IMG/VR virus record: IMGVR_UViG_2690316097_000011
Strand: one strand, 5' to 3'
Source of the DNA: a virus
Taxonomy: Duplodnaviria; Heunggongvirae; Uroviricota; Caudoviricetes
DNA length: 10,114 nucleotides
Below, piece by piece: positions 1-10,114 of the stretch. Below the pieces are notes generated by a model. It made no database searches. It worked only from the letters and a program-made list of their open reading frames with translations, and was not told the origin of the DNA. The first letter of the stretch is position 1, and each line of letters opens with the position of its first letter. Made by a program: the position numbers and the translations under genes.

Positions 1-54
1 GAGCTGCATGACAAAGTCATCGGGCATTATCTGAACATAAAACACTACCAATAA
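1..54 (+). CDS. insB: IS1 transposase InsB, C-terminal fragment (partial CDS, 5' end outside window)
   Basis: Frame 1 translates to ELHDKVIGHYLNIKHYQ followed by TAA at 52-54, the known C-terminus of IS1 InsB. Confidence 0.8.
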   Translation, partial: ELHDKVIGHYLNIKHYQ

Positions 55-69
55 GTTGGAGTCATTACC
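1..69 (+). mobile_element. IS1 right end (3' terminus with terminal inverted repeat); element continues upstream of the window
   Basis: Positions 1-69 match the canonical IS1 3' end, finishing ...AACATAAAACACTA(C)CAATAAGTTGGAGTCATTACC at 69. One C/T difference from the IS1 sequence as I recall it. Confidence 0.9.
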
Positions 70-201
70 AAACGGTTGAAATGTATGCCGCTACTTACGG
101 GTCCTGTAATCCTCTGAATAAACCAGAGGGAAAAGATGATTTCGACAAAATTTACCGCTTCTTGGAGGACCGCTATATCAAAAGCTTAGAGGACGCAGGG
201 A

Positions 202-579
202 TCAAATCCCCAGTGAAGTCACCATTGTCCTGAGAACTTGCAGAACGTCATGATCATAACTTCCATCCAAACCGCGACGGCGAATTGCTTCTCGTATTAC
301 CGGAAGCAGTTCGCTGGAAATCTCGGTGCATATTTCACCTGATAATACGCTTGGCTCAAGTGAGAATATTGGTGAACTTACGGTCTTGGTCTCGACAGTT
401 TCAGAGTCAGTGCCAACATTATAAAGCTCAACGAAAGCGGTCTTGATTTTCCGGGCCAGATCTTTTGCTGGCTCGCTTGCAATATCTTTCCCGATTTCTC
501 GCAGCACAGAATGCAATGTATGAGCTGCTGTTTTCTGTACATCAGACGGTAAATCTTTAAATTCCATCGTCAGCCTCAT
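202..579 (-). CDS. hypothetical protein, distal gene of the leftward operon
   Basis: 125 aa ORF. Its ATG at 579 overlaps the upstream stop (TGATG). An in-frame ATG at 567 with a GAGG Shine-Dalgarno 6 nt upstream is an alternative start (121 aa). No recognisable domain by eye. Confidence 0.55.
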   Translation of the reverse strand: MRLTMEFKDLPSDVQKTAAHTLHSVLREIGKDIASEPAKDLARKIKTAFVELYNVGTDSETVETKTVSSPIFSLEPSVLSGEICTEISSELLPVIREAIRRRGLDGSYDHDVLQVLRTMVTSLGI

Positions 580-731
580 CAGTCAGTGTTTCTGGCTAAC
601 CAGCAACGCGCGCCAGATTCGGTTTTAAACGTTTTGCTTTTGGTATACGTCATGGCGGTAAACGTTCCATCCTGGTTAGGGAACACGCCGCACACCAGAG
701 ATTCGTTGTTGCCAAGATCGATAGTATCCAT
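579..731 (-). CDS. small hypothetical protein (50 aa from the ATG at 731; ORF could extend to 785 giving 68 aa)
   Basis: The ATG at 731 has a GAGG Shine-Dalgarno (aaatGAGGtcagcATG on the minus strand); the ATG at 785 has none. Stop overlaps the next gene start. First gene downstream of the OL-like operators. Confidence 0.45.
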   Translation of the reverse strand: MDTIDLGNNESLVCGVFPNQDGTFTAMTYTKSKTFKTESGARCWLARNTD

Positions 732-912
732 GCTGACCTCATTTCCCCTTAACGCCGGGGTGGCGGAACAAAAAACCTGCTGCATAGTTAAAGATTGAAC
801 CCTGCCGTCATGTTCTTACGCCTCGGGCTGGCTACTTAACCCCTGACCACTGTCTGGTAACTCGAAGTATTGCCCTGCATTCTGTGGGGCGGGGTGGGTT
901 GACGCCTGAAAC

Positions 913-954
913 AATAGCATCATTATTTTTTTTGATGTAAATAGCATCGCTATT
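913..954. promoter_or_regulatory. OL-like operator pair: two 15 bp palindromes AATAGC-N3-GCTATT
   Basis: AATAGCATCATTATT at 913-927 and the perfect palindrome AATAGCATCGCTATT at 940-954, centres 27 bp apart. The same half-site recurs between the repressor and cro-like genes. Lies between the terminator of the repressor operon and the leftward genes. Confidence 0.5.
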
Positions 955-970
955 GTTTTTTGTTGGGGCA

Positions 971-994
971 AGAAAAAACCACCCTAAGGTGGTT
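971..994 (-). terminator. Rho-independent terminator of the repressor-antitoxin-toxin operon
   Basis: 7 bp perfect stem (977-983 pairs with 988-994, AACCACC/GGTGGTT) with a 4 nt loop, followed on the minus-strand transcript by UUUUCUU. Sits 17 nt after the toxin stop codon. Confidence 0.6.
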
Positions 995-1010
995 CTGTCG
1001 GCGGGAATAA

Positions 1011-1301
1011 TTAACTGTTTTTGCCTGGATACTGTCTTCGAGAATGCACAATATTTACTACTTCTATGCTTGATGCTGTTACTCGGTAAAGGATGATGTA
1101 GTTAGGATGAGTTACAATTTCACGAAGACCAAGAACTCGCTCGCTTGGAGGATACAGGTAAGGATGCTCTGTGAGCGGCAAAACGGATGTTTCAATTCGA
1201 ATTTTCATTCTGCGTGCTGCCGCGGGATTTTCTTTAGCTATGTAGGCTACGATCTGGCGCAAATCATCACGAGCAGATGGTAGCCATAAAACGGGTAACA
1301 T
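1011..1301 (-). CDS. parE: ParE/RelE-family type II toxin
   Basis: 96 aa. Translation MLPVLWLPSARDDLRQIVAYIAKENP...IILYRV has the ParE/RelE-like length and motif pattern. Start overlaps the upstream gene stop (TAATG), typical of toxin-antitoxin pairs. Confidence 0.85.
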   Translation of the reverse strand: MLPVLWLPSARDDLRQIVAYIAKENPAAARRMKIRIETSVLPLTEHPYLYPPSERVLGLREIVTHPNYIILYRVTASSIEVVNIVHSRRQYPGKNS

Positions 1302-1495
1302 TATTCACCTCTGTGAGTTGCAGCAGCAATTTGGGCAATAATTTGTTCCATTTCCGCCATTACCTCATCATGCGGAATCGCCGGGCGGGGATCCGCGAGG
1401 CTTGCTGCTACTTTGGCCCGCAGCCATTCGTTGTAACTATTTTCTTGCTCAACTGTCTCAAATTCTGAAACCATTGGGGAAAGGACTGTACTCAT
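1301..1495 (-). CDS. paaA: PaaA-like antitoxin (ParE-associated antitoxin)
   Basis: 64 aa. Motif LSPMVSEFETVEQENSYNEWLRAKVAASLADPRPAIPHDEV resembles, from memory, PaaA2 antitoxins of the prophage-borne paaR2-paaA2-parE2 systems of E. coli O157. Good Shine-Dalgarno (AGGAGA, 8 nt spacer). Immediately upstream of the toxin. Confidence 0.75.
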   Translation of the reverse strand: MSTVLSPMVSEFETVEQENSYNEWLRAKVAASLADPRPAIPHDEVMAEMEQIIAQIAAATHRGE

Positions 1496-1514
1496 TTTAC
1501 ATATCTCCTCTGAT

Positions 1515-2015
1515 TTAGGCGCGACGGCCTTTTTGTGCAGCTAACCACCGCGCAACCGTACGATCCATTGATTCTTTTTTATCTTTCATCTCCTGAAGCA
1601 TGTGTTCTTGATCTTCTTTCGGAAAAGCTCTGAACGTATGGATTAAATCTCGTTCCATCGGCTCTACGGCAAACGGTAGTTCATCCTCTGTTTGTTCTGT
1701 GTCTGCTGGTAATGCGACTATGTTATCTTGCTGTGGTTCTCGACAATACATCCTTGCAATTTGCAGCAAATCTACCATGTCTGGCCTGATTGACTCAGGG
1801 GGAACTTTCAGTAAGCCAGCAAACTTTAGAACAGCCTCAAGGTTTAGTGGGGTTTGACCATTTAGGTAGTGACTTACCGCCCCTTGTGTTGAAAACCCCA
1901 TAATTTCCGCCGCACGTTCCTGAGTCAATCCCAACTGAGATTTCTTTGCCATCCAGATTTCTTTCAGTCTTCTGGCGGCGTTGAGGTCGGTGTCTGACAA
2001 TGATTTTCTTTTCAT
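1515..2015 (-). CDS. lambda-CI-like prophage repressor (HTH, PaaR-like), without an S24 peptidase domain
   Basis: From the ATG at 2015: MKRKSLSDTDLNAARRLKEIWMAKKSQLGLTQERAAEIMGFSTQGAVSHYLNG... aligns by eye with the lambda CI N-terminal DNA-binding domain. The C-terminal 80 aa show no Ser/Lys autocleavage motifs. The ORF can extend to a GTG at 2045. Stop lies 18 nt before the antitoxin start. Confidence 0.85.
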   Translation of the reverse strand: MKRKSLSDTDLNAARRLKEIWMAKKSQLGLTQERAAEIMGFSTQGAVSHYLNGQTPLNLEAVLKFAGLLKVPPESIRPDMVDLLQIARMYCREPQQDNIVALPADTEQTEDELPFAVEPMERDLIHTFRAFPKEDQEHMLQEMKDKKESMDRTVARWLAAQKGRRA

Positions 2016-2027
2016 ACATCCAATTCT

Positions 2028-2090
2028 AATAAGATTGCTAATCACTTTGAAATAGCATCACTATTTACTTTTAAAAATAACAGTGCTATT
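2028..2090. promoter_or_regulatory. OR-like operator region in the divergent repressor/cro-like intergenic space
   Basis: AATAGCATCACTATT at 2051-2065 and AATAACAGTGCTATT at 2076-2090, plus a weaker AATAAGATTGCTAAT at 2028-2042. Centres are 23-25 bp apart, echoing lambda OR1-3. Same half-site as the left operator pair. Confidence 0.55.
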
Positions 2091-2126
2091 AATTATGCAT
2101 TGGTAACACATCACATAGGGCGGATT

Positions 2127-2390
2127 ATGAATCTTGGAGAATATTTGCATCATTTTCATATAACCCAGAGTTCATTTGCTGAGATTGTTGGCGCATCCCA
2201 AGGGATGGTCAGCCACGTTATAACGGGGCGTGCAAAACTTACAGGAGAAAAAATATTACGTTGGTGTGAAGCAACGGGATGGGTGGTGACCCCACATGAG
2301 ATTGACAGTAAAACCTACCCCAACCCAACTGACGGCTTGCCTGCTGAGTTTCAGGCTAACACACAACCATCGGCGGGGGTTGATTCATGA
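2127..2390 (+). CDS. Cro-like / YdaS-family HTH regulator
   Basis: 87 aa from the ATG at 2127 (ORF opens at a TTG at 2100). HTH-like segment QSSFAEIVGASQGMVSHVITG. Divergent from the repressor across the operator region. Stop overlaps the next start (ATGA). Confidence 0.75.
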   Translation: MNLGEYLHHFHITQSSFAEIVGASQGMVSHVITGRAKLTGEKILRWCEATGWVVTPHEIDSKTYPNPTDGLPAEFQANTQPSAGVDS

Positions 2391-2812
2391 AAATCAAGCA
2401 TGAACACATCCGCATGGCGATGAAAGCCTGGGCGCATCCGGACGGTGAAAAAGTTCCGGCAGCTGAAATAACCAGGGTTTATTTCGAACTGGGAATGACG
2501 TTTCCGGTTCTGCATAACGACAGCAAGCACAACACGCTTTATCTCAACACCCAAAAGATTTTCCGTTGGCTGGATAAAGACACCCCTGACGCTGTTGAAA
2601 AAATTCAGGCGTTGTTACCTGCGATCGAAAGGGCAATGCCACCTCCGCTGGTGGCTCGAATGCGCAGCCACAGTTCAGCTTATTTTCGGGAACTGGTGGA
2701 GACGCATGAACGACTGGTGAGAGACGCTGATGATTTTGTCGCAGTGGCAATCGCCGGTTTCAATCAGATGAACCGTGGTGGCCCGGCAGGAAATGCTGTG
2801 GCAGTACATTGA
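2387..2812 (+). CDS. CII-like / YdaT-family protein
   Basis: 141 aa beginning MKIKHEHI and ending ...AVH, as YdaT-family proteins do. Occupies the cII position between the cro-like gene and the replication genes. Confidence 0.75.
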   Translation: MKIKHEHIRMAMKAWAHPDGEKVPAAEITRVYFELGMTFPVLHNDSKHNTLYLNTQKIFRWLDKDTPDAVEKIQALLPAIERAMPPPLVARMRSHSSAYFRELVETHERLVRDADDFVAVAIAGFNQMNRGGPAGNAVAVH

Positions 2813-2883
2813 CTGACAATAGCCATATCGAATCGCTCCCGGCAACTCGTGAGTAAAAAGATTCGGTATCAGAAGAGGTGAGT

Positions 2884-3948
2884 ATGGCTAACGCCTGGCT
2901 CAGATTATGGCATGACATGCCAAATGACCCTAAGTGGCGAACAATTGCCAGGGTGTCAGGGCAGCCAATTGCAACAGTGATGGCAGTGTATATCCACCTC
3001 CTGGTGAGCGCGTCACGAAATGTCACGCGAGGTCACATTGATGTCACGACAGAAGATTTGGCAAGTGCGCTCGACGTGACAGAAGAGGTAATTGATTCAA
3101 TTTTGCAGACGATGCAGGGGCGGGTACTTGATGGTGATTTAATCACTGGATGGGAAAAACGCCAGGTGCTTAAAGAGGACAACGGCAATATTTCGCAAAC
3201 CGCAAAATCTCCTGCAGAGCGCAAGAGGGCGCAGCGAGAGAGGGAAAGAAAGCGGGAACAAAATGGCGATTGTCACGGCGCGTCACGAAATGTCACGCAC
3301 ATGTCACGACGAGTCACGACAGATACAGATAAAGATACAGATAAAGAAGATCAAAACACTATGGTCCATGGCGTAAAAAACGCCACGAACCAGGCAGGGG
3401 ATGTTCAGACCGTCAATCCTGGTCAGCCAGCAGGCTCGACACCGGAAGCCGATTCAGCGTATGCGCTGAAAGCCGATTCGGGCGCTGTGCAGCAGGTGAT
3501 GACCGCAAGGCCGGAGCAATCACTCCAACTGCAGCAGCCTGAAGCCGATTCCGCCATTCAGCGGGAAGCCGATCGGGTAGCCCCGGAAAACACCGGGCAG
3601 CCTGTGGGACGAGTGGATTATCCGGATGTGTTCGAACAGGTCTGGCGGGAATACCCGTTGCGTGCCGGGGCAAACCCGAAGAAATCCGCATTCAGTGCCT
3701 GGAAGGCCAGATTGCGCGAGGGGGTGCCACCAGAGACCATGCTGGATGGTGTGAGGCGTTACGCGAGATACCTGGCGGCGACCGGGAAAGCGGGAACGGA
3801 ATTTGTTCAGCGAGCGACGACGTTTTTTGGGCCGGACCGGAATTTTGAAAACCCCTGGTTGCTCCCGGTAAGCGGCACGAACAACCAGCGTTGTGTGAAT
3901 CATATTTCTGAACCGGATACCGAAATTCCGCCGGGATTCAGGGGGTGA
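2884..3948 (+). CDS. replication initiator / replisome organiser (lambda O-like, YdaU/DUF1376-type N-terminus)
   Basis: 354 aa from the ATG at 2884 (GAGG Shine-Dalgarno 5 nt upstream; GTG at 2878 possible). N-terminus MANAWLRLWHDMPNDPKWR, a low-complexity charged linker, and a C-terminal domain. Sits directly upstream of the DnaC-like gene and contains the iteron arrays. Confidence 0.8.
   Translation: MANAWLRLWHDMPNDPKWRTIARVSGQPIATVMAVYIHLLVSASRNVTRGHIDVTTEDLASALDVTEEVIDSILQTMQGRVLDGDLITGWEKRQVLKEDNGNISQTAKSPAERKRAQRERERKREQNGDCHGASRNVTHMSRRVTTDTDKDTDKEDQNTMVHGVKNATNQAGDVQTVNPGQPAGSTPEADSAYALKADSGAVQQVMTARPEQSLQLQQPEADSAIQREADRVAPENTGQPVGRVDYPDVFEQVWREYPLRAGANPKKSAFSAWKARLREGVPPETMLDGVRRYARYLAATGKAGTEFVQRATTFFGPDRNFENPWLLPVSGTNNQRCVNHISEPDTEIPPGFRG
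3009..3048. repeat. iteron cluster 1 (GTCACG core with 10-11 bp phasing) inside the initiator gene
   Basis: GTCACG at 3012, 3022 and 3043, GTCAC at 3032, and an inverted CGTGAC at 3075. A 20 bp block CGCGTCACGAAATGTCACGC is repeated at 3279-3298. Confidence 0.55.
3271..3346. repeat. iteron cluster 2 plus adjacent GATACAGATAAA tandem repeat; putative phage origin
   Basis: GTCACG at 3272, 3282, 3292, 3303 and 3313 (spacing 10, 10, 11, 10 bp), immediately followed by AGATACAGATAAAGATACAGATAAAG at 3321-3346. Confidence 0.6.
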
Positions 3949-3954
3949 TGTGGC

Positions 3955-4701
3955 ATGAAAAACATTGCGGCAGCCGGGGTTCTTGAACGTATTCACAGAC
4001 TTGCACCACAGGGGGCGGTTCCACCGTACCGGACGGTGGAGGAGTGGCGGGAATGGCAACTTGCTGAAGGACGAAAACGCAGCGAGGAGATTAACCGCCA
4101 GAATCGCCAGTTGCGGGTGGAAAAAATCCTGAATCGTTCGGGCATCCAGCCTCTGCACAGCAAATGCTCGTTTGCGAATTATCAGGTGCAGAACGACGGG
4201 CAAAAATACGCGCTGAGCCAGGCCAAATCCATAGCTGACGAACTGATGACCGGGTGCACGAATTTTGTGTTCAGCGGTAAAACCGGCACCGGGAAAAATC
4301 ACCTTGCAGCGGCGATGGGTAACCGGCTGATGGCGAAGGGGCGCAGCGTGATTATCGTCACCGAGTCTGATGTCATGAGCGTGTTGCATGACAGCTACGA
4401 CAACGGCAAATCCGGTGAAAAATTTTTACAGGAGCTTTGCGGGGTTGATTTGCTGGTCCTGGATGAAATAGGCATTCAGCGGGAGACGAAAAACGAGCAG
4501 GTGGTATTGCACCAGATAATTGATCGCCGGACAGCATCACTGTGCAGTGTCGGGATGTTAACAAACCTGAATCATGCCGCAATGAGCACGCTTCTTGGTG
4601 AGAGGATTATGGACCGCATGACCATGAACGGTTGTCGGTGGGTGACGTTTAACTGGGATAGCTGGCGTTCAAATGTCAGCTTTCCGGGAGTTGTGAAGTA
4701 A
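3955..4701 (+). CDS. DnaC-like helicase loader (IstB-like AAA+ ATPase, lambda P analogue)
   Basis: 248 aa. Walker A GKTGTGKNHLAAAMG and Walker B LLVLDEIG. Shine-Dalgarno AGGGGG upstream. Confidence 0.9.
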   Translation: MKNIAAAGVLERIHRLAPQGAVPPYRTVEEWREWQLAEGRKRSEEINRQNRQLRVEKILNRSGIQPLHSKCSFANYQVQNDGQKYALSQAKSIADELMTGCTNFVFSGKTGTGKNHLAAAMGNRLMAKGRSVIIVTESDVMSVLHDSYDNGKSGEKFLQELCGVDLLVLDEIGIQRETKNEQVVLHQIIDRRTASLCSVGMLTNLNHAAMSTLLGERIMDRMTMNGCRWVTFNWDSWRSNVSFPGVVK

Positions 4702-4722
4702 TTTTTGTTGGAGGATGTTTTA

Positions 4723-5448
4723 ATGGAAACTGTATTTGACGCACTGAAAGCACTGAAAAGAGCCTCTTCACATGTGGTGGCGTCCCGCCTTGGAATCAGC
4801 CGTGAAGATGCGGTCAACGAACTGTGGAAACTGAAGCGCCGTGGTGAAGCGGATAACAAGGGTTCGATGTGGTGGCTGATTCAGGCTGGTGAAAGTGAAC
4901 CAGTGTCACCGGTACCGAAAGTGACAGCGCAAATGCTGACTGAGGCGATTGAACAACATGGCCCACAAACGGCGGATGAGCTGGCACTGATGTTCGGGAT
5001 TACCTCCCGCCGGGCGAATTCATCGCTGGCCATGGCAATCAGCAAAGGGCGTCTGATTCGCGTGAATCAGGGCGGTAAATTTCGGTACTGCATACCGGGC
5101 GCTGATTTACCGGCAGAGCCGAAAGCCGCATCCATAGCGGAAACGGATGGTAAAGTCTTTCCTCAGCCAGCAGGTGTTGCGTTACCGGTACAGGAAGCTG
5201 CAACACAGGAAGAAATTAAAACAGAAACTGTGGCGGACATTGTGCAGTCGTTGCCATCGTTCACCGAAACGCAAGCGGATGACCTGGTTTTACCATCGCT
5301 GCATATGGCAAACCGCGAACTGCGTCGGGCGAAAAGTCATGTCCAGAAGTGGGAGCGTGTCTGCGCCGCGTTGCGGGAGCTGAACAAGCACCGGGATATT
5401 GTTCGACAGATTGTCGATTCCTCCGGTCGTATTGTGTCGGAAAAGTGA
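4723..5448 (+). CDS. hypothetical phage protein with two winged-helix-like segments
   Basis: 241 aa from the ATG at 4723 (GGAGG Shine-Dalgarno, 8 nt spacer; ORF opens at a TTG at 4705). No catalytic motifs recognised. Confidence 0.7.
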
Positions 5449-5463
5449 TTGCCGGGGGCGCTT

Positions 5464-5705
5464 ATGGCAAAAGTATTTACACAGGAAGAGCGGGAAAAAA
5501 TTAAGGGGCAGGTTGTTGAACTCGTACGCCAGAGTGGGCGCGAGACGTTACGACAACTGGAAGCTAAAACCGGGGCGACAAGATATTTAATAAGCGTTCT
5601 CGCCAGAGAGCTGGTTGCCAGTGGGGATGTATACAACTCTGGCTACGGGTTATTCCCGTCTGAACAGGCTCGTAAGGACTGGCAAAACGCCCGCAAAAAA
5701 CTCTC
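5464..5705 (+). pseudogene. 5' portion of a phage gene interrupted by an IS3-family remnant
   Basis: Starts MAKVFTQEEREKIKGQVVELVRQSGRETLRQLEAKTGATRY... and reads into IS-derived sequence after ...ARKKLS at about 5705. A paralogous 3' portion resumes at 6002. Confidence 0.6.
5497..5705. repeat. about 209 bp imperfect direct repeat, copy 1
   Basis: Aligns by eye with 6002-6210 at roughly 90% identity (the last 110 bp nearly identical). Both copies end ...CGCAAAAAACTCTC. Confidence 0.8.
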
Positions 5706-6001
5706 GAACGGTGGCTGAACTGGAATCTGAAATTCTGCAACTGCGTAAGGCGTTAAATGAAGCTCGCCTTGAGCGAGATATATTAAAAAAAGAACAAATG
5801 GTAGTGTCCGCTATTGCCAGTACACCTCAAAGAGATAATCGGGAAGCGCCTTCACTGATCGAAAGTTGATTTTCAGGAACCGTTCTGACAGCTTCGGCTT
5901 TGAACTCTTTAGAGTAACGTTGGGTTTTTCTGCTCATTATTAGCTCCTTCTGATGCCATTCTATTTCAGGAAGGAGTGTCCGTTAAACTCAGGCTACCTC
6001 A
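5706..6001. mobile_element. scrambled IS3-family (IS600-like) remnant made of two oppositely oriented fragments
   Basis: Minus strand 6001 to 5830: terminal repeat TGAGGTAGCCTGAGTTTAACGGACACTCC, then a Shine-Dalgarno and ATG at 5937 encoding MSRKTQRYSKEFKAEAVRTVPENQLSISEGASRLSL (OrfA N-terminus), then stop. Plus strand 5706-5793 encodes RTVAELESEILQLRKALNEARLERDILKK (OrfA leucine zipper), followed by a second terminal-repeat-like end at 5800-5829. Confidence 0.75.
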
Positions 6002-6210
6002 AAAATTAAAGGGCAGGTTGTTGAACTTGTACGTCTGAGCGGTCGCGAGACGTTGCGGCAACTGGAAGCCAAGACAGGTGCGACAAGATATCTGATGAGT
6101 GTTCTCGCCAGAGAGCTGGTTGCCAGTGGCGATGTATACAACTCTGGTTACGGGTTATTCCCGTCTGAACAGGCGCGTAAGGACTGGCAAAACGCCCGCA
6201 AAAAACTCTC
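6002..6210. repeat. about 209 bp imperfect direct repeat, copy 2
   Basis: Paralogous to 5497-5705. Begins immediately after the IS terminal repeat at 6001. Confidence 0.8.
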
Positions 6211-6391
6211 AAGGGCAAATCTGAAGAAACCATCTGTGGTTGATCCTGACCTTATCTGGTCATTACCAGACGGAGAAATACGCCGCTACGACAGACATCA
6301 GAACATAATCTGTCGCGAGTGCCGGAAGAGTGAAGTTATGCAGCGTGTACCGGCTTTCTATCAGGGTGATTTTCAGGAGGCGGTACTGTGA
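6002..6391 (+). pseudogene. 3' portion of the IS-interrupted phage gene (no 5' end or start codon)
   Basis: In-frame continuation KIKGQVVELVRLSGRETLRQLEAKTGATRY...ICRECRKSEVMQRVPAFYQGDFQEAVL. An upstream in-frame TAA at 5984-5986 lies inside IS sequence. Confidence 0.6.
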
Positions 6392-6448
6392 GTGAAATTA
6401 GCTATCAGGCTTCAATTACCGCTGGCATTCGCATCAAAGGAGAGGAGC

Positions 6449-6805
6449 ATGGAAATAAAACCAGAAGATGAGTTAAGCAATATTGTTTTATTTCCGGTAA
6501 AAGAGGATAACCCTCGTAATCAGGTTAATTTTCTTTATGAGCCATCGGAAAGACCATATTGCCATCACGCTTCTGTCCGGGTTGACGAAAAAGAGCGTCA
6601 GGTCCGCTGTAAAATTTGCGGTGCAGTTGTGGAGCCATTTGACTGGATGCTCTCTGTGGCGAAAAGAGAAACCAGACTGGCAGATGATGTAAGGCTCTTG
6701 CGCCAGGAGGAGCGGGAAAGGCGAAAAAATATAGAAAAGCTAATCCAGATTGAGCGTAATGCGAAAGCGCGGATACGCAGGGTGACAAAATATAGCCCCG
6801 AATAA
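6449..6805 (+). CDS. hypothetical small protein with a putative zinc-ribbon (C-H-H ... C-x2-C)
   Basis: 118 aa from the ATG at 6449, with a strong Shine-Dalgarno AGGAGAGGAG. Cys/His cluster YCHH...CKICG. Charged C-terminal tail. Confidence 0.6.
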   Translation: MEIKPEDELSNIVLFPVKEDNPRNQVNFLYEPSERPYCHHASVRVDEKERQVRCKICGAVVEPFDWMLSVAKRETRLADDVRLLRQEERERRKNIEKLIQIERNAKARIRRVTKYSPE

Positions 6806-7019
6806 TCAAGGTTATTTCTGGAAGTCAAGTCGTGAGTGATGAGGACTAACAAATACGGTGAACTCGATAAAGAGATTCAGGACGAACTGGAGGCCAGGAA
6901 TGATTGACAAATCACCAAGTGAGTTCAGCTACAAAGATTTATTGTCATAACGGGTTATGAGATCGACTTGGTGCGTGATATTCTTCGGGCCAGTTTGCTA
7001 TGCGCCACCATGAGATGTT

Positions 7020-8852
7020 ATGGCCCGCATGTTTGATACATTAGGATTTTACATTATGAATGTGCAACATTTTGATTTTTTTACAGATAATGAGTTTTCT
7101 AATCTGGAAAGATATCAAACTTGTAAAGCCATGGCCAAAGGTTATGCGGGCAATTACAAAACCGGGCAGTCAAGGTTGATGCATGCCCGCTCATACTGCT
7201 TCAGCATCGTAGCTGCATATTGGGATACCCTTGCAAAAAAGCAAAAAAGCAGCATTAAAATGAGGGCAGTACCGCACACTGTTTACATAGAAGACATTCC
7301 ATGTGATGCACGCGAGCTCGCTGAACGAACAGGTGAGCTTATTGCTCAATTTCCGGCGGAGGACGCTGGATATCTGATTGGGTCAATTTATACGGTAATG
7401 CTGCCATCCGCTTACCGTTCGGAATTGGGGGCTTACTATACCCCCCCACCTTTGGTAGCGCGTCTCTTGGACCTGGCTGAAAAGTCTGGTGTTGATTTTT
7501 CTCATGCATCGGTTATTGATCCTGCGTGTGGTGGCGGTGCATTTTTGGCACCAGTAGCCATTCGAATGTTAAAAAAAGACAAGGGGTCTTCCCCTGAATG
7601 GATGTTGAGGAGAATCAGTCGTCGTTTAAAGGGGATAGAAATCGATCCATTTGCGGCTTGGATGAGTTTGGTATTGCTCGAATCTGTACTAATGCCACTA
7701 TGTGTAAAGGTAAAACGTAGATTGCCTGAAGATACAATTATTGTTGCTGATGCGCTTCAGCAAGATAAATTTTCTGGTTATGATCTTGTGGTAGGGAATC
7801 CGCCTTACGGACGTGTCACTCTCGATATTAAAACGAGAGAAAAATATTCTCGTTCGTTATTTGGTCATGCAAATCTATATGGATTGTTCACCGACTTAGC
7901 TGTTCGCATGGTTAAAGAGAAAACAGGAGTTATTGCATTTCTTACGCCAACTTCTTTTCTTGGTGGGCAGTATTTCACCGCGCTGCGAACCCTTTTGACC
8001 GAAAAAACTACTCCGTATGCCCTTGATTTCGTCACTGACAGGGATGGGGTCTTTGACGATGTTCTCCAGGAAACAATGTTGACAGCATTCAAGGCGGGAG
8101 AACATAAAGTTCGGGCCCAGGTATCCTCACTTGTCCCTAAGGGGTTGAACAAAGCAAAAATTGAGAAAATAGGTAATGTTGATATAGAAAAAGGTGGAGC
8201 AACGTGGCTTTTGCCACGCGTTAAAGATGATGCCTGTTTTCTTAATGTATTAAAACAGATGTCTACGCGTTTAGCTGATCTGGGATACTCAGTCTCTACA
8301 GGTCAGTTAGTCTGGAATCGATTTAAGTCGCAGTTGCGTACGACGAAAGGAAAAAATAGCTACCCATTAGTCTGGGCGGAATCAATAACTTCAGCTGGTT
8401 TTCGTTTTAGTGCAGACAGAAAAAATCATGTTCCCTATATCGATATAACCCCACAACAGGGTTTCCTTGTGACAAAATCTGAATGTGTGCTTGTTCAGCG
8501 GACAACATCGAAGGAACAGGACAGAAGGATTTTAGCGGCAATTTTACCTCAGGGATTTATAGATGAAACTGGTGGCGTAGTAGTTGAAAACCATATTAAT
8601 ATTGTATATTCAAACGGATTGTTCTCTGCGGTTCGCCCTGATGTTATTGATATGCTACTTAATTCGCATGTTGTCGATCGGGCGTTCAGGTGTATAAGCG
8701 GAAGTGTTGCTGTTTCGGCCTATGAATTGAATTCAATCCCGTTGCCTTCTCTGGAGCAGGTGATGGAGATTCAATCGTTAATTGATGCTGGCGTCCACAG
8801 ACGGATTATTGAGAGAACTATCGCTGGTTTCTATGGAGTGATGATTGCATGA
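7020..8852 (+). CDS. gamma-class N6-adenine DNA methyltransferase (Eco57I/PstI-like family)
   Basis: 610 aa. Motif X (GAYYTPPPLV), motif I (VIDPACGGGAFL) and motif IV (VVGNPPYGR) occur in the gamma-class order, with a roughly 300 aa C-terminal region as a probable target-recognition domain. Alternative ATGs at 7029 and 7056. About 27% GC at the 5' end. Confidence 0.9.
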   Translation: MARMFDTLGFYIMNVQHFDFFTDNEFSNLERYQTCKAMAKGYAGNYKTGQSRLMHARSYCFSIVAAYWDTLAKKQKSSIKMRAVPHTVYIEDIPCDARELAERTGELIAQFPAEDAGYLIGSIYTVMLPSAYRSELGAYYTPPPLVARLLDLAEKSGVDFSHASVIDPACGGGAFLAPVAIRMLKKDKGSSPEWMLRRISRRLKGIEIDPFAAWMSLVLLESVLMPLCVKVKRRLPEDTIIVADALQQDKFSGYDLVVGNPPYGRVTLDIKTREKYSRSLFGHANLYGLFTDLAVRMVKEKTGVIAFLTPTSFLGGQYFTALRTLLTEKTTPYALDFVTDRDGVFDDVLQETMLTAFKAGEHKVRAQVSSLVPKGLNKAKIEKIGNVDIEKGGATWLLPRVKDDACFLNVLKQMSTRLADLGYSVSTGQLVWNRFKSQLRTTKGKNSYPLVWAESITSAGFRFSADRKNHVPYIDITPQQGFLVTKSECVLVQRTTSKEQDRRILAAILPQGFIDETGGVVVENHINIVYSNGLFSAVRPDVIDMLLNSHVVDRAFRCISGSVAVSAYELNSIPLPSLEQVMEIQSLIDAGVHRRIIERTIAGFYGVMIA

Positions 8853-9931
8853 ATCTGCCTGTTGTTCCCCCATTGAATGTTATCCGGGAAAGATTACAAT
8901 TAATTTTCCCTGAAGGGACTGAGAATCGTGGATATTTAATTCGGGAAATAGCTGCAAAAACAATTTTTGTCATGTTTTATGCTGGTGCGGTTGAGGGGCT
9001 GGGGCGATGGATAAGGCCCAGCCAGGTTGTAAGTATGGGAGATTCGCAGGCTGCTCTTACTGATGATGCGTCCAGAGAAAGCTGGGTAAAGATGACTTTC
9101 TCTAAACAAAAGATAAGGCCTGCTGATGCATGGTATGCGGAAAATACGCGTGAGCCAATACGTGATGAAACTATAAAAAATGGCCTAATACCTTGCAATG
9201 CAATTGTTGAGCGTAAAGGTATACCCACCACATCCTCTCGTCCTCGTTACAGTTTGAATCGCTCTTTTGCAGCACTCTTTGATGCCGGGCTTGAAGGAGA
9301 TTCGCTGCTGAGTGCAATAAGTTCCTGGCAAGAAAATCATTTGAACAAAGCCGCTCTTGCTAGGTTGCGTTTATTGAAATCAGGGGCAGTGATTGCTGCT
9401 GATGCCGTAGTCGTCACTTTCCCAAATGGAGAGAAGAGAACTTTAGCTCCGGGCCCGTCAAGTACAATAGCTAAGGCCGTCATCGAAGTTTTTGCTCCTA
9501 ATTTTCTTAAGAATCCAACTGTGCTCTGGTTGTCTGAATCCGGGAATAAAGTTGTTGCTCAGGATGATGTATTGGCAAAAGCATTGGGGCTGAATATTGA
9601 TGCCTCAAAAGCACTTCCAGATATTATTTTGATTGATTTGGGAGAGGACCGAACGGGTTCGGACATGCTTGTAGTTTTCACTGAAGTAGTTGCGACAGAT
9701 GGGCCTATAAACAGGGAACGAAAAGTTACTCTCACTCATTTGGCTATTGACGCTGGGTTCAGCGAGAAAAATCTTGCATTCCTTACGGCATTTATGGACA
9801 GAAGTGCTCTGCCTTTTAAAAAGGCAATACCAGAATTGGCGTGGGGATCTTATGCATGGTTTGCTTCTGAACCGGAGCACTTAATTGATCTTCGGGATGG
9901 TTATCCGGTAAAGATCAGCCAGAGAAAATGA
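8849..9931 (+). CDS. putative restriction endonuclease partner (possibly BsuBI/PstI family); function unverified
   Basis: 360 aa, translationally coupled to the methyltransferase (ATGA overlap at 8849-8852). Size and two-domain layout fit BsuBI/PstI-type endonucleases. A candidate nuclease core PDIILIDLGED...LVVFTEVVATDGPINRERK is only weakly PD-(D/E)xK-like. Confidence 0.55.
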   Translation: MNLPVVPPLNVIRERLQLIFPEGTENRGYLIREIAAKTIFVMFYAGAVEGLGRWIRPSQVVSMGDSQAALTDDASRESWVKMTFSKQKIRPADAWYAENTREPIRDETIKNGLIPCNAIVERKGIPTTSSRPRYSLNRSFAALFDAGLEGDSLLSAISSWQENHLNKAALARLRLLKSGAVIAADAVVVTFPNGEKRTLAPGPSSTIAKAVIEVFAPNFLKNPTVLWLSESGNKVVAQDDVLAKALGLNIDASKALPDIILIDLGEDRTGSDMLVVFTEVVATDGPINRERKVTLTHLAIDAGFSEKNLAFLTAFMDRSALPFKKAIPELAWGSYAWFASEPEHLIDLRDGYPVKISQRK

Positions 9932-10083
9932 CCAAAGTTTGATATCCGCCACGCCCTGAAGGATGGGGGTTTTACGGTGCACTGGATAAAAAATCGGTTT
10001 CATAGATTTGCCCACCGTGGTATACGCCTGCGATAAAAACTTTATTGTCATCAACGGCAAAAGCAATAATTGTTCTGTGGCGG

Positions 10084-10114
10084 GGTGATGCTGCCAACTT
10101 ACTGATTTAGTGTA
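10084..10114 (+). mobile_element. IS1 left end (terminal inverted repeat), same orientation as the IS1 at 1-69; continues beyond the window
   Basis: GGTGATGCTGCCAACTTACTGATTTAGTGTA is the canonical IS1 5' terminus. Confidence 0.9.

Follow-up and report, generated by a model that had tools for sequence, protein, structure and literature searches.

How a 10-kb block of phage immunity, replication and defence genes comes to lie between two copies of the insertion sequence (IS) IS1 in direct orientation is the question raised by the virus record IMGVR_UViG_2690316097_000011 (Caudoviricetes), of which we analysed the whole stretch of 10,114 nucleotides (here the window). A sequence-only reading of this DNA had proposed a prophage truncated on both sides by IS1, and a segment that might move as a composite-transposon-like unit or be lost by IS1-IS1 recombination. 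Comparison with Shigella sonnei chromosomes makes it highly probable that the window represents what is left of a lambdoid prophage at the Qin site in an S. sonnei-type genome, namely its immunity-replication-defence core, and that its IS1 borders arose by insertion and then deletion.

The Flanking IS1 Copies Are Complete in Related Chromosomes

The window opens with the last 69 bp of IS1 (1–69, plus strand), which include the right terminal inverted repeat (IRR) and are identical at 68 of 69 positions, with the mismatch at position 48, to the 768-bp IS1 of the S. sonnei chromosome L017. It closes with the first 31 bp of another copy (10084–10114, plus strand), which include the left terminal inverted repeat (IRL) and are identical at 31 of 31 positions to the start of the L017 IS1. 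The IS1 ends that the sequence-only reading saw at both edges, on the plus strand, are thereby confirmed. The non-IS1 DNA of the window spans 70–10083, and its megablast alignment to Escherichia coli genomes starts exactly at 70 and stops exactly at 10083. IS1 is 768 bp long and ends in imperfect inverted repeats of about 30 bp (PMC12428005), and both IRL and IRR are readable in the aligned copies.

The window probably represents one entire short-read contig broken within IS1 repeats, so the exact 69- and 31-bp ends are by themselves uninformative. The bracket might then be a mere artefact of contig ends that says nothing of the locus, given that short-read contigs here regularly end in IS1 (L028, a contig of 9868 bp, begins and ends in IS1, and the majority of contigs with these genes measure 5–10 kb), that the window holds just 69 and 31 bp of IS1, and that hundreds of IS copies per Shigella genome would make many unique segments look bracketed (PMC7373316). 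Complete chromosomes make this explanation very unlikely, because in them two full IS1 copies truly flank the segment and mark deletion borders. The comparison set comprised 15 distinct complete or near-complete S. sonnei chromosomes after removal of duplicates, 99.9% identical to the window and many of them about 4.8 Mb long, which were retrieved by exact-protein look-ups with three window proteins. One relative, CP010829, is S. sonnei FORC_011 (PMC5447701). All 15 carry a complete IS1 (767–769 bp) at both positions in direct orientation, which settles for the relatives the matter of completeness left for checking by the sequence-only reading, and in L017 the left and right copies are identical over the whole 768 bp. 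The InsA/InsB-type genes lie outside the window itself and are present in the full copies of the relatives, where their products show the domains Zn_ribbon_InsA (PF03811), HTH_Tnp_IS1 (PF12759) and DDE_Tnp_IS1 (PF03400). Position 48 of the window is C, and T in all 15 relatives; this contig end in a repeat may derive from another IS1 copy.

The Right Border Is a Fixed Deletion Junction

In none of the 15 chromosomes is the right IS1 (IS1c) flanked by a target duplication, and its junction is the same in all of them: an inner flank ..TTCTGTGGCGG (short form ..TGTGGCGG), IS1, and an outer flank CATATAACAAAAC.. (short form CATATAACA..). The inner flank interrupts a RelE/ParE-family toxin gene, the second such gene of the window, of which a 3′ remnant of 112 out of 312 nt is left (9972–10083, minus strand, aligning to 22721–23032 of the intact E. 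coli prophage locus L001). The match to this gene ends exactly at 10083, at the right IS1, and its ParD antitoxin is gone. In the intact prophages L001 and L016 the toxin gene continues past this point, and parD, DUF968, rusA, Q, lysis, terminase, portal, capsid and tail genes come after it. The outer flank corresponds to a point 48 bp upstream of ydfI and 41 bp downstream of ydfJ in K-12 (position 6962 of the K-12 interval L032), and the genes to the right of IS1c in the relatives are ydfI, ydfZ, ydfH (rspR), ydfG and dcp. With its inner flank in the toxin gene and its outer flank beside ydfI, the junction implies a deletion that took ydfJ together with the entire late half of the prophage. 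Since it lacks a duplication and is identical in all 15 relatives, we regard it as an old, fixed IS1-associated deletion that predates their divergence. The deletion could have occurred as an adjacent deletion by intramolecular transposition or by recombination of two IS1 copies, which are indistinguishable here. A 125-bp query across the right junction found no place with at least 80% coverage among 5426 E. coli genomes.

A third IS1 in direct orientation lies 8.2 kb to the right of IS1c (20226–20994 in L012, and at the same place in eight other loci), between GGDEF/mgtT genes and a glycosyl hydrolase gene. This copy, too, is without a duplication (..CTCCGTTCA, IS1, CAGGCGGAA..), and therefore represents another deletion junction and a recombination partner nearby.

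The Left Border Began as a Simple Insertion

In 7 of the 15 genomes, the left IS1 (IS1b) lies between two copies of a 9-bp target duplication of its own, AAACGGTTG. The right-hand copy of this duplication occupies positions 70–78 of the window, as identified from the flanks in the relatives and from empty sites: L004 and L008 have an empty IS1b site with a single AAACGGTTG. Beyond IS1b there is more prophage DNA (a pRha/ASH gene, dicB and ydfD). The insertion point lies 37 bp into an open reading frame (ORF) for a hypothetical protein of 66 amino acids (aa), which is intact in L004 and L008 and of which a 50-aa ORF remains at 81–233 of the window.

Four states of the left border are present among the relatives. 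In state A (L006, CP060117.1) the order is X–IS1a–Y…Z–IS1b–W, where IS1a is a second copy with its own duplication AACCGGAAA, IS1b is flanked by AAACGGTTG, and the two copies are 1244 bp apart, with a fragment of the pRha/ASH gene between them and dicB and ydfD beyond. The IS1a site is empty, with a single copy of the 9-mer, in L008. State B (L005, L013) reads X–IS1–W, precisely what homologous recombination of IS1a with IS1b produces. State C (L002, L025, L026) reads ynfF′–IS1a–Y…Z–IS1b–W, the DNA to the left of IS1a having been deleted to the middle of ynfF. State D (L007, L012, L014, L017, L020, L024) reads ynfF′–IS1–W and shows both events, with a left flank that maps to L032 position 37902, inside ynfF. 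In L015, L018 and L019, IS1b has its duplication and the stretch of the locus is too short to show IS1a. The corresponding left-flank letters are ..AAAACGGTTG for prophage, ..AAACCGGAAA for the recombinant and ..CACGGGTCG for ynfF′. Single-nucleotide polymorphisms at 2056 and 7640 split the A/B genomes from the C/D genomes, so the IS1a–IS1b interval has apparently been lost at least twice independently. Position 2056 falls in the operator/promoter region between the repressor gene and the cro-like gene.

These states show IS1b to have entered cleanly, leaving a 9-bp duplication, IS1a to have entered 1.2 kb further left with a duplication of its own, and homologous recombination of IS1a with IS1b to have then removed the DNA between them. 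A deletion from IS1a into ynfF was a further step, and the steps are still polymorphic among strains. Judged by the duplications and empty sites, the left IS1 began as a simple insertion and the left truncation is a later, strain-variable event. Truncation by IS1 on both sides, as the sequence-only reading had it, is accordingly correct for the right side, where there is no duplication and IS1 abuts ydfI, but for the left side it holds in some strains only and secondarily.

These junctions also bear on a simpler explanation, namely that each IS1 copy is a separate simple insertion and that a complete prophage extends beyond the two copies on either side. The left IS1, with its own duplication in 7 of 15 genomes and pRha/ASH, dicB and ydfD beyond it, behaves as this explanation predicts. 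The right IS1, however, never has a duplication and abuts ydfI, for which the explanation is rejected on that side; integrase, lysis and structural genes are absent from the locus in all 15 chromosomes; and the left arm stops at an IS600 joined to ynfE even in L006, which has the fullest state. We consider it so improbable as to be nearly negligible. This scenario is the one that the sequence-only reading had set against its own, and it is right about the origin of the left IS1, but the prophage beyond is a remnant and not a complete element.

The Locus Is That of a Qin-Site Prophage

Qin of K-12 is located between ydfJ and ynfP, its late genes on the ydfJ/ydfI side and its dicB-ydfD-ydfE-intQ arm on the side of the ynf genes. 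The S. sonnei element, which is bordered on the left in the relatives by ynfF or ynfF′, ynfG, ynfH, dmsD and clcB, occupies the same chromosomal interval in the same orientation and is collinear with K-12, and the dicB-ydfD-ydfE stretch of L006 is 92% identical to that of Qin. Gene order in the window is lambda-like, with a repressor, cro and cII analogues, O, a helicase loader and accessory genes. Locus, orientation and the Qin-like dicB-ydfD-ydfE stretch together argue for a lambdoid prophage at the Qin site that has different modules, and against arrival of the segment as a block. No integrase, lysis or structural genes are found among the genes of the window, as the sequence-only reading had noted for the 10-kb segment, and none are called at the locus in any of the 15 chromosomes. 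The element is a remnant and not an excisable prophage, having neither an integrase nor attachment sites.

The element resembles Qin in the YdfA-like DUF1391 gene beside the repressor, and both are defective and have IS insertions. In contrast to Qin, which has DicA/DicC, the element has PaaR2/YdaS/YdaT, together with an O-like/DnaC-like module and a restriction-modification (R-M) system; its late genes, integrase and ydfJ are deleted, as is, depending on the strain, the DNA from ynfP to ynfF; and its borders are IS1 copies instead of att sites. At potC in E. coli FDAARGOS_943, a complete lambdoid prophage that lacks IS1 (L001) contains the replication-to-R-M part in the same order, with 91% identity over 2375–4704 and 99% over 6113–10083. 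The immunity genes of this prophage differ (a LexA-family protein and Cro), and within it integrase, excisionase and exonuclease genes are found on the left and relE/parD, rusA, Q, lysis and structural genes on the right. The best E. coli complete genome covers 65% of the window, and none has the whole of it.

In L006, an IS600 copy joins ydfE to the middle of ynfE (reverse complement, about 4190–5744; K-12 counterpart, L032 26846–35600), and intQ, ynfP, rspBA, ynfA, ynfB, speG, ynfC, ynfD and the 5′ part of ynfE are absent from the gap at this junction. Loss of speG is a known pathoadaptive change in Shigella, and here it appears, from the layout of the junction, to be tied to an IS600-bordered deletion that adjoins the prophage.

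The Segment Is Not a Composite Transposon in Origin

The argF region of K-12 is flanked by IS1, and a composite transposon of that type or of the Tn9 type would account for the arrangement differently, by transposition of the IS1-segment-IS1 unit as a block into the ydfI–ynfF region. IS1 pairs are known to mobilise intervening DNA, as in Tn9 and an IS1-lambda-bio-IS1 unit (PMC12428005 and reference 67 therein), and the resemblance is close in that two complete, identical and direct IS1 copies flank about 10 kb. However, the outer flanks share no repeat (left ..CACGGGTCG, ..ACCGGAAA or ..AAACGGTTG versus right CATATAACA..), and the 8–9 bp target duplication that the sequence-only reading had suggested looking for around the whole unit occurs in none of the states. 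Within prophage DNA, the left IS1 is flanked by a duplication of its own; the segment shares the locus and orientation of Qin, with the Qin-like dicB-ydfD-ydfE stretch adjacent; and the unit is at one and the same site in all 15 chromosomes. No plasmid record covers at least 80% of the segment, and no E. coli genome (of 5426) has the right junction at 80% coverage or more. We therefore reject a composite-transposon origin as extremely unlikely; the arrangement differs from Tn9-type elements in that it arose in place by insertion and deletion, with neither a duplication flanking the unit nor a second location.

What the direct IS1 pair might still do is a separate matter. In principle it could delete or mobilise the 10-kb core; neither was seen here. 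Loss of the segment by IS1-IS1 recombination is plausible, being mechanistically well founded because the neighbouring direct pair, IS1a and IS1b, did exactly that. A record deposited as a circular E. coli plasmid of 15977 bp (pZ1322PEC0161-2, NZ_CP148542.1; L033) was considered as a candidate lambda-dv-like replicon and set aside, as it consists only of a lambdoid immunity-replication-nin-Q-lysis block of uncertain standing: either a piece of phage DNA, excised or defective, or a product of assembly.

The account of a Qin-site remnant bordered by insertion and deletion has several points against it. The flanks of the window itself lie outside the data, so its own left-border state cannot be assigned among A to D, and the window shares the alleles 2056C and 7640A with the A/B group but not the difference of that group in the 870–1069 block. 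For the two deletions without duplication (the right one, and that from IS1a into ynfF), the absence of a duplication is the only basis for the proposed mechanism. The border states read from complete genomes are only as reliable as the assembly across 768-bp repeats, and since every relative was retrieved with proteins encoded in the segment, genomes without it could not appear in the sample.

A Case of Genome Decay Driven by Insertion Sequences

In Shigella no IS is more abundant than IS1, and genome decay through IS-mediated deletion is well established (PMC7373316). The locus follows this pattern, with IS1 dominant and deletion between homologous IS copies, and every component belongs to a described family; it is an ordinary, clear case of a process already known. 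It differs from the general picture, as a matter of description, in that stepwise intermediates of one locus are all visible in public complete genomes. It thus offers a sequence-documented, stepwise dismantling of a prophage by IS1 in a young pathogen clone, in which insertion with duplication, recombination of direct copies and deletion into neighbouring chromosomal genes can each be read. It also offers a natural test bed for the hypothesis of local protection of DNA by toxin-antitoxin (TA) and R-M systems against IS-mediated loss. Current understanding is illustrated by the locus and not changed.

The Immunity Region Carries a paaR2-paaA2-parE2 Operon

The repressor and TA pair named in the sequence-only reading are supported by domain matches. 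A gene for a ParE2-type toxin (1011–1301, minus strand; Pfam ParE_toxin, E = 1.8e-17) also matches PDB entry 5cw7 (E = 6.7e-37), the matching chain of which bears the depositors' name ParE. It is adjacent to a gene for a PaaA2 antitoxin (1301–1495, minus strand; Pfam PF21217 PaaA2, E = 3e-23), of the PaaA2 type without a DNA-binding domain. Upstream of both, in the same orientation, at the cI position and divergent from ydaS-ydaT, lies the gene for a PaaR2/CI-like repressor (1515–2015, minus strand) with a helix-turn-helix (HTH) domain and no peptidase domain (Pfam HTH_3, E = 8.3e-9), the N-terminus of which matches the N-terminal domain of lambda CI (E = 3e-9). The repressor gene is the first of a repressor-antitoxin-toxin operon, an order equal to that of paaR2-paaA2-parE2 in the cryptic prophage CP-933P of E. 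coli O157:H7 (PMC8630535).

Between the repressor gene and the cro-like gene, a divergent promoter/operator region is assigned by position (2016–2126). By consensus match alone, it contains a sigma-70-like site on the minus strand (2051–2023) that ends 7 nt before the repressor ATG. The predicted repressor promoter fits a leaderless transcript, as has been described for paaR2 of CP-933P (PMC8630535). On the other side of this region lie a gene for a YdaS/Cro-like regulator (2127–2390, plus strand), assigned from a weak HTH_3 match (E = 4e-4) and its position, and a gene for YdaT (2387–2812, plus strand), which is the predicted functional analogue of CII and matches Pfam YdaT_toxin and a YdaT_toxin-domain protein of known structure (PDB 8bt1, E = 3e-70). 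In CP-933P, YdaT has been described as equivalent to CII (PMC9986795), and PaaR2, YdaS and YdaT behave like CI, Cro and CII in a bistable switch (PMC8630535). The window shares with CP-933P the same five-gene layout and a YdaT gene upstream of the O homologue. However, the proteins are homologous and not identical, and in S. sonnei the surrounding prophage is deleted on both sides.

Toward the left IS1, the window has a gene for a DUF1391 (YdfA-like) small protein (579–731, minus strand; PF07151, E = 1.3e-28), at the same position as ydfA in Qin, and a hypothetical early-left gene for a 125-aa protein (202–579, minus strand) with no Pfam family, an identical protein being found in many lambdoid prophages. 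In the draft sequence L010 (AAVEHV010000132.1), a gene for an IS91-family (Y2) transposase is inserted in ydaT at a point equivalent to about 2673–2677 of the window, and the segment thus takes further IS hits in some strains. An Rfam scan of the window gave no RNA family above threshold.

Replication Module and Restriction-Modification System

An O-like replisome organiser gene (2884–3948, plus strand), a homologue of which is annotated "phage replisome organizer", contains the predicted origin. The motif GTCACG occurs nine times in the window, always within 3012–3318 and in two clusters inside this initiator gene, a number reached in none of 200 shuffles. The iterons, at 3012–3050 and 3272–3320, are phased at 10–11 bp and followed by an AT-rich tandem repeat (3321–3344). 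The features of a lambda-type origin, phased iterons and an AT-rich stretch inside the initiator gene, are present, and this predicted origin, the O-like gene and a DnaC-like helicase loader gene (3955–4701, plus strand; Pfam IstB_IS21, E = 3e-19, and Bac_DnaA) agree with the origin, initiator and loader of the sequence-only reading. A gene for a DUF1627 protein (4723–5448, plus strand; Pfam, E = 5.9e-93) follows.

In the right part of the window, a hypothetical gene for a 137-aa protein (6392–6805, plus strand; a gene call, given as 118 aa in some relatives) precedes a gene for a type II N6-adenine DNA methyltransferase (7020–8852, plus strand; PADLOC MTase_II, E = 1.8e-300; Pfam Eco57I and N6_Mtase), the translation of which contains the motifs DPACGGGAFL and GNPPYG. 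It overlaps by 4 bp a gene for a type II restriction endonuclease of the BsuBI/PstI family (8849–9931, plus strand; Pfam BsuBI_PstI_RE, E = 9e-45; PADLOC REase_II, E = 2.8e-128), in which the N-terminal BsuBI/PstI domain is also matched (E = 1e-30). The "methyltransferase cassette" of the sequence-only reading is thus rightly placed but incompletely labelled, since with the endonuclease it makes a full type II R-M system. As in BsuBI/PstI-family systems, methyltransferase and endonuclease genes are adjacent, and the same cassette stands at the same position in intact E. coli prophages; the methyltransferase protein of the window occurs in many genomes. In contrast, L006 has a truncated methyltransferase gene beside an open endonuclease ORF: a 2.35-kb deletion with TAC microhomology, equivalent to 5089–7440 of the window, takes DUF977, the 137-aa gene and the first 140 methyltransferase codons, including the GAYYTP motif, and the endonuclease ORF has S62G as its sole change, unique to L006. 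This suggests that in L006 the endonuclease may be inactive or the genome may be protected by another methylase.

Whether the 10-kb core has been kept by selection, with the ParE TA pair on the left and the R-M system on the right acting as addiction modules that limit erosion by IS1, can be judged in part from these genes. The retained segment reaches 940 bp outside parE and 152 bp outside the endonuclease gene, and ParE, PaaA2 and the endonuclease are called full-length in all 15 chromosomes. The paaA2-parE2 pair has been reported to be addictive, and proposed to limit rearrangements and to stabilise CP-933P (PMC8630535), and on the plasmid pINV of Shigella a TA system was shown to shield neighbouring DNA, limiting the deletions that arise there between IS copies (PMC5629016). 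However, only one locus is involved, every genome was found by way of genes that the segment itself carries, and the truncated methyltransferase beside an open endonuclease ORF (S62G) in L006 implies that the R-M system may not be lethal to lose. CTGCAG (PstI) sites give no avoidance signal in the window (2 observed versus 2.6 expected), and retention may simply reflect too little time for more loss. We hold selective retention to be possible and, on balance, doubtful.

A linked pair of ideas, rather more speculative, is that addiction modules at both edges (0.9 kb and 0.15 kb from IS1) set the limit to which erosion can go in cells that stay viable and that an excised, lambda-dv-like circle persists; together we think these unlikely. 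IS1-IS1 recombination would release a circle of about 10.8 kb with the cro-like, cII-like, O and loader genes, the origin, the TA pair and the R-M system, and this circle might maintain itself as a replicon while the bistable switch of the immunity region is set to YdaS-on.

A Rearranged DUF977 Region

Between the DUF1627 gene and the 137-aa gene, the window has a disrupted DUF977 region (5464–6391, plus strand), made up of a first copy (5464–5705), pieces of IS600 (5706–6000) and a diverged second copy (6001–6391), the first 210 bp of which are 91% identical to 5496–5705. All relatives have a single intact DUF977 gene here, for a protein of 140 aa, and the extra stretch of 505 bp is present only in the window. 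The IS600 part is a scramble of about 295 bp in mixed orientations, with an internal piece, a 48-bp terminus and 171 bp of the other terminus. E. coli VL40 (H66) was considered as a model for it and set aside, as its IS600 is in DUF1627 and not in DUF977. The DUF977/IS600 junction had no match in a scan of species-representative genomes, and exact-protein look-ups with the three window-specific DUF977 products were likewise without a match. The scramble is either a real IS600-mediated rearrangement, the result of recombination with another prophage, or a misassembly. The second DUF977 copy carries 23 differences from the relatives up to position 6268.

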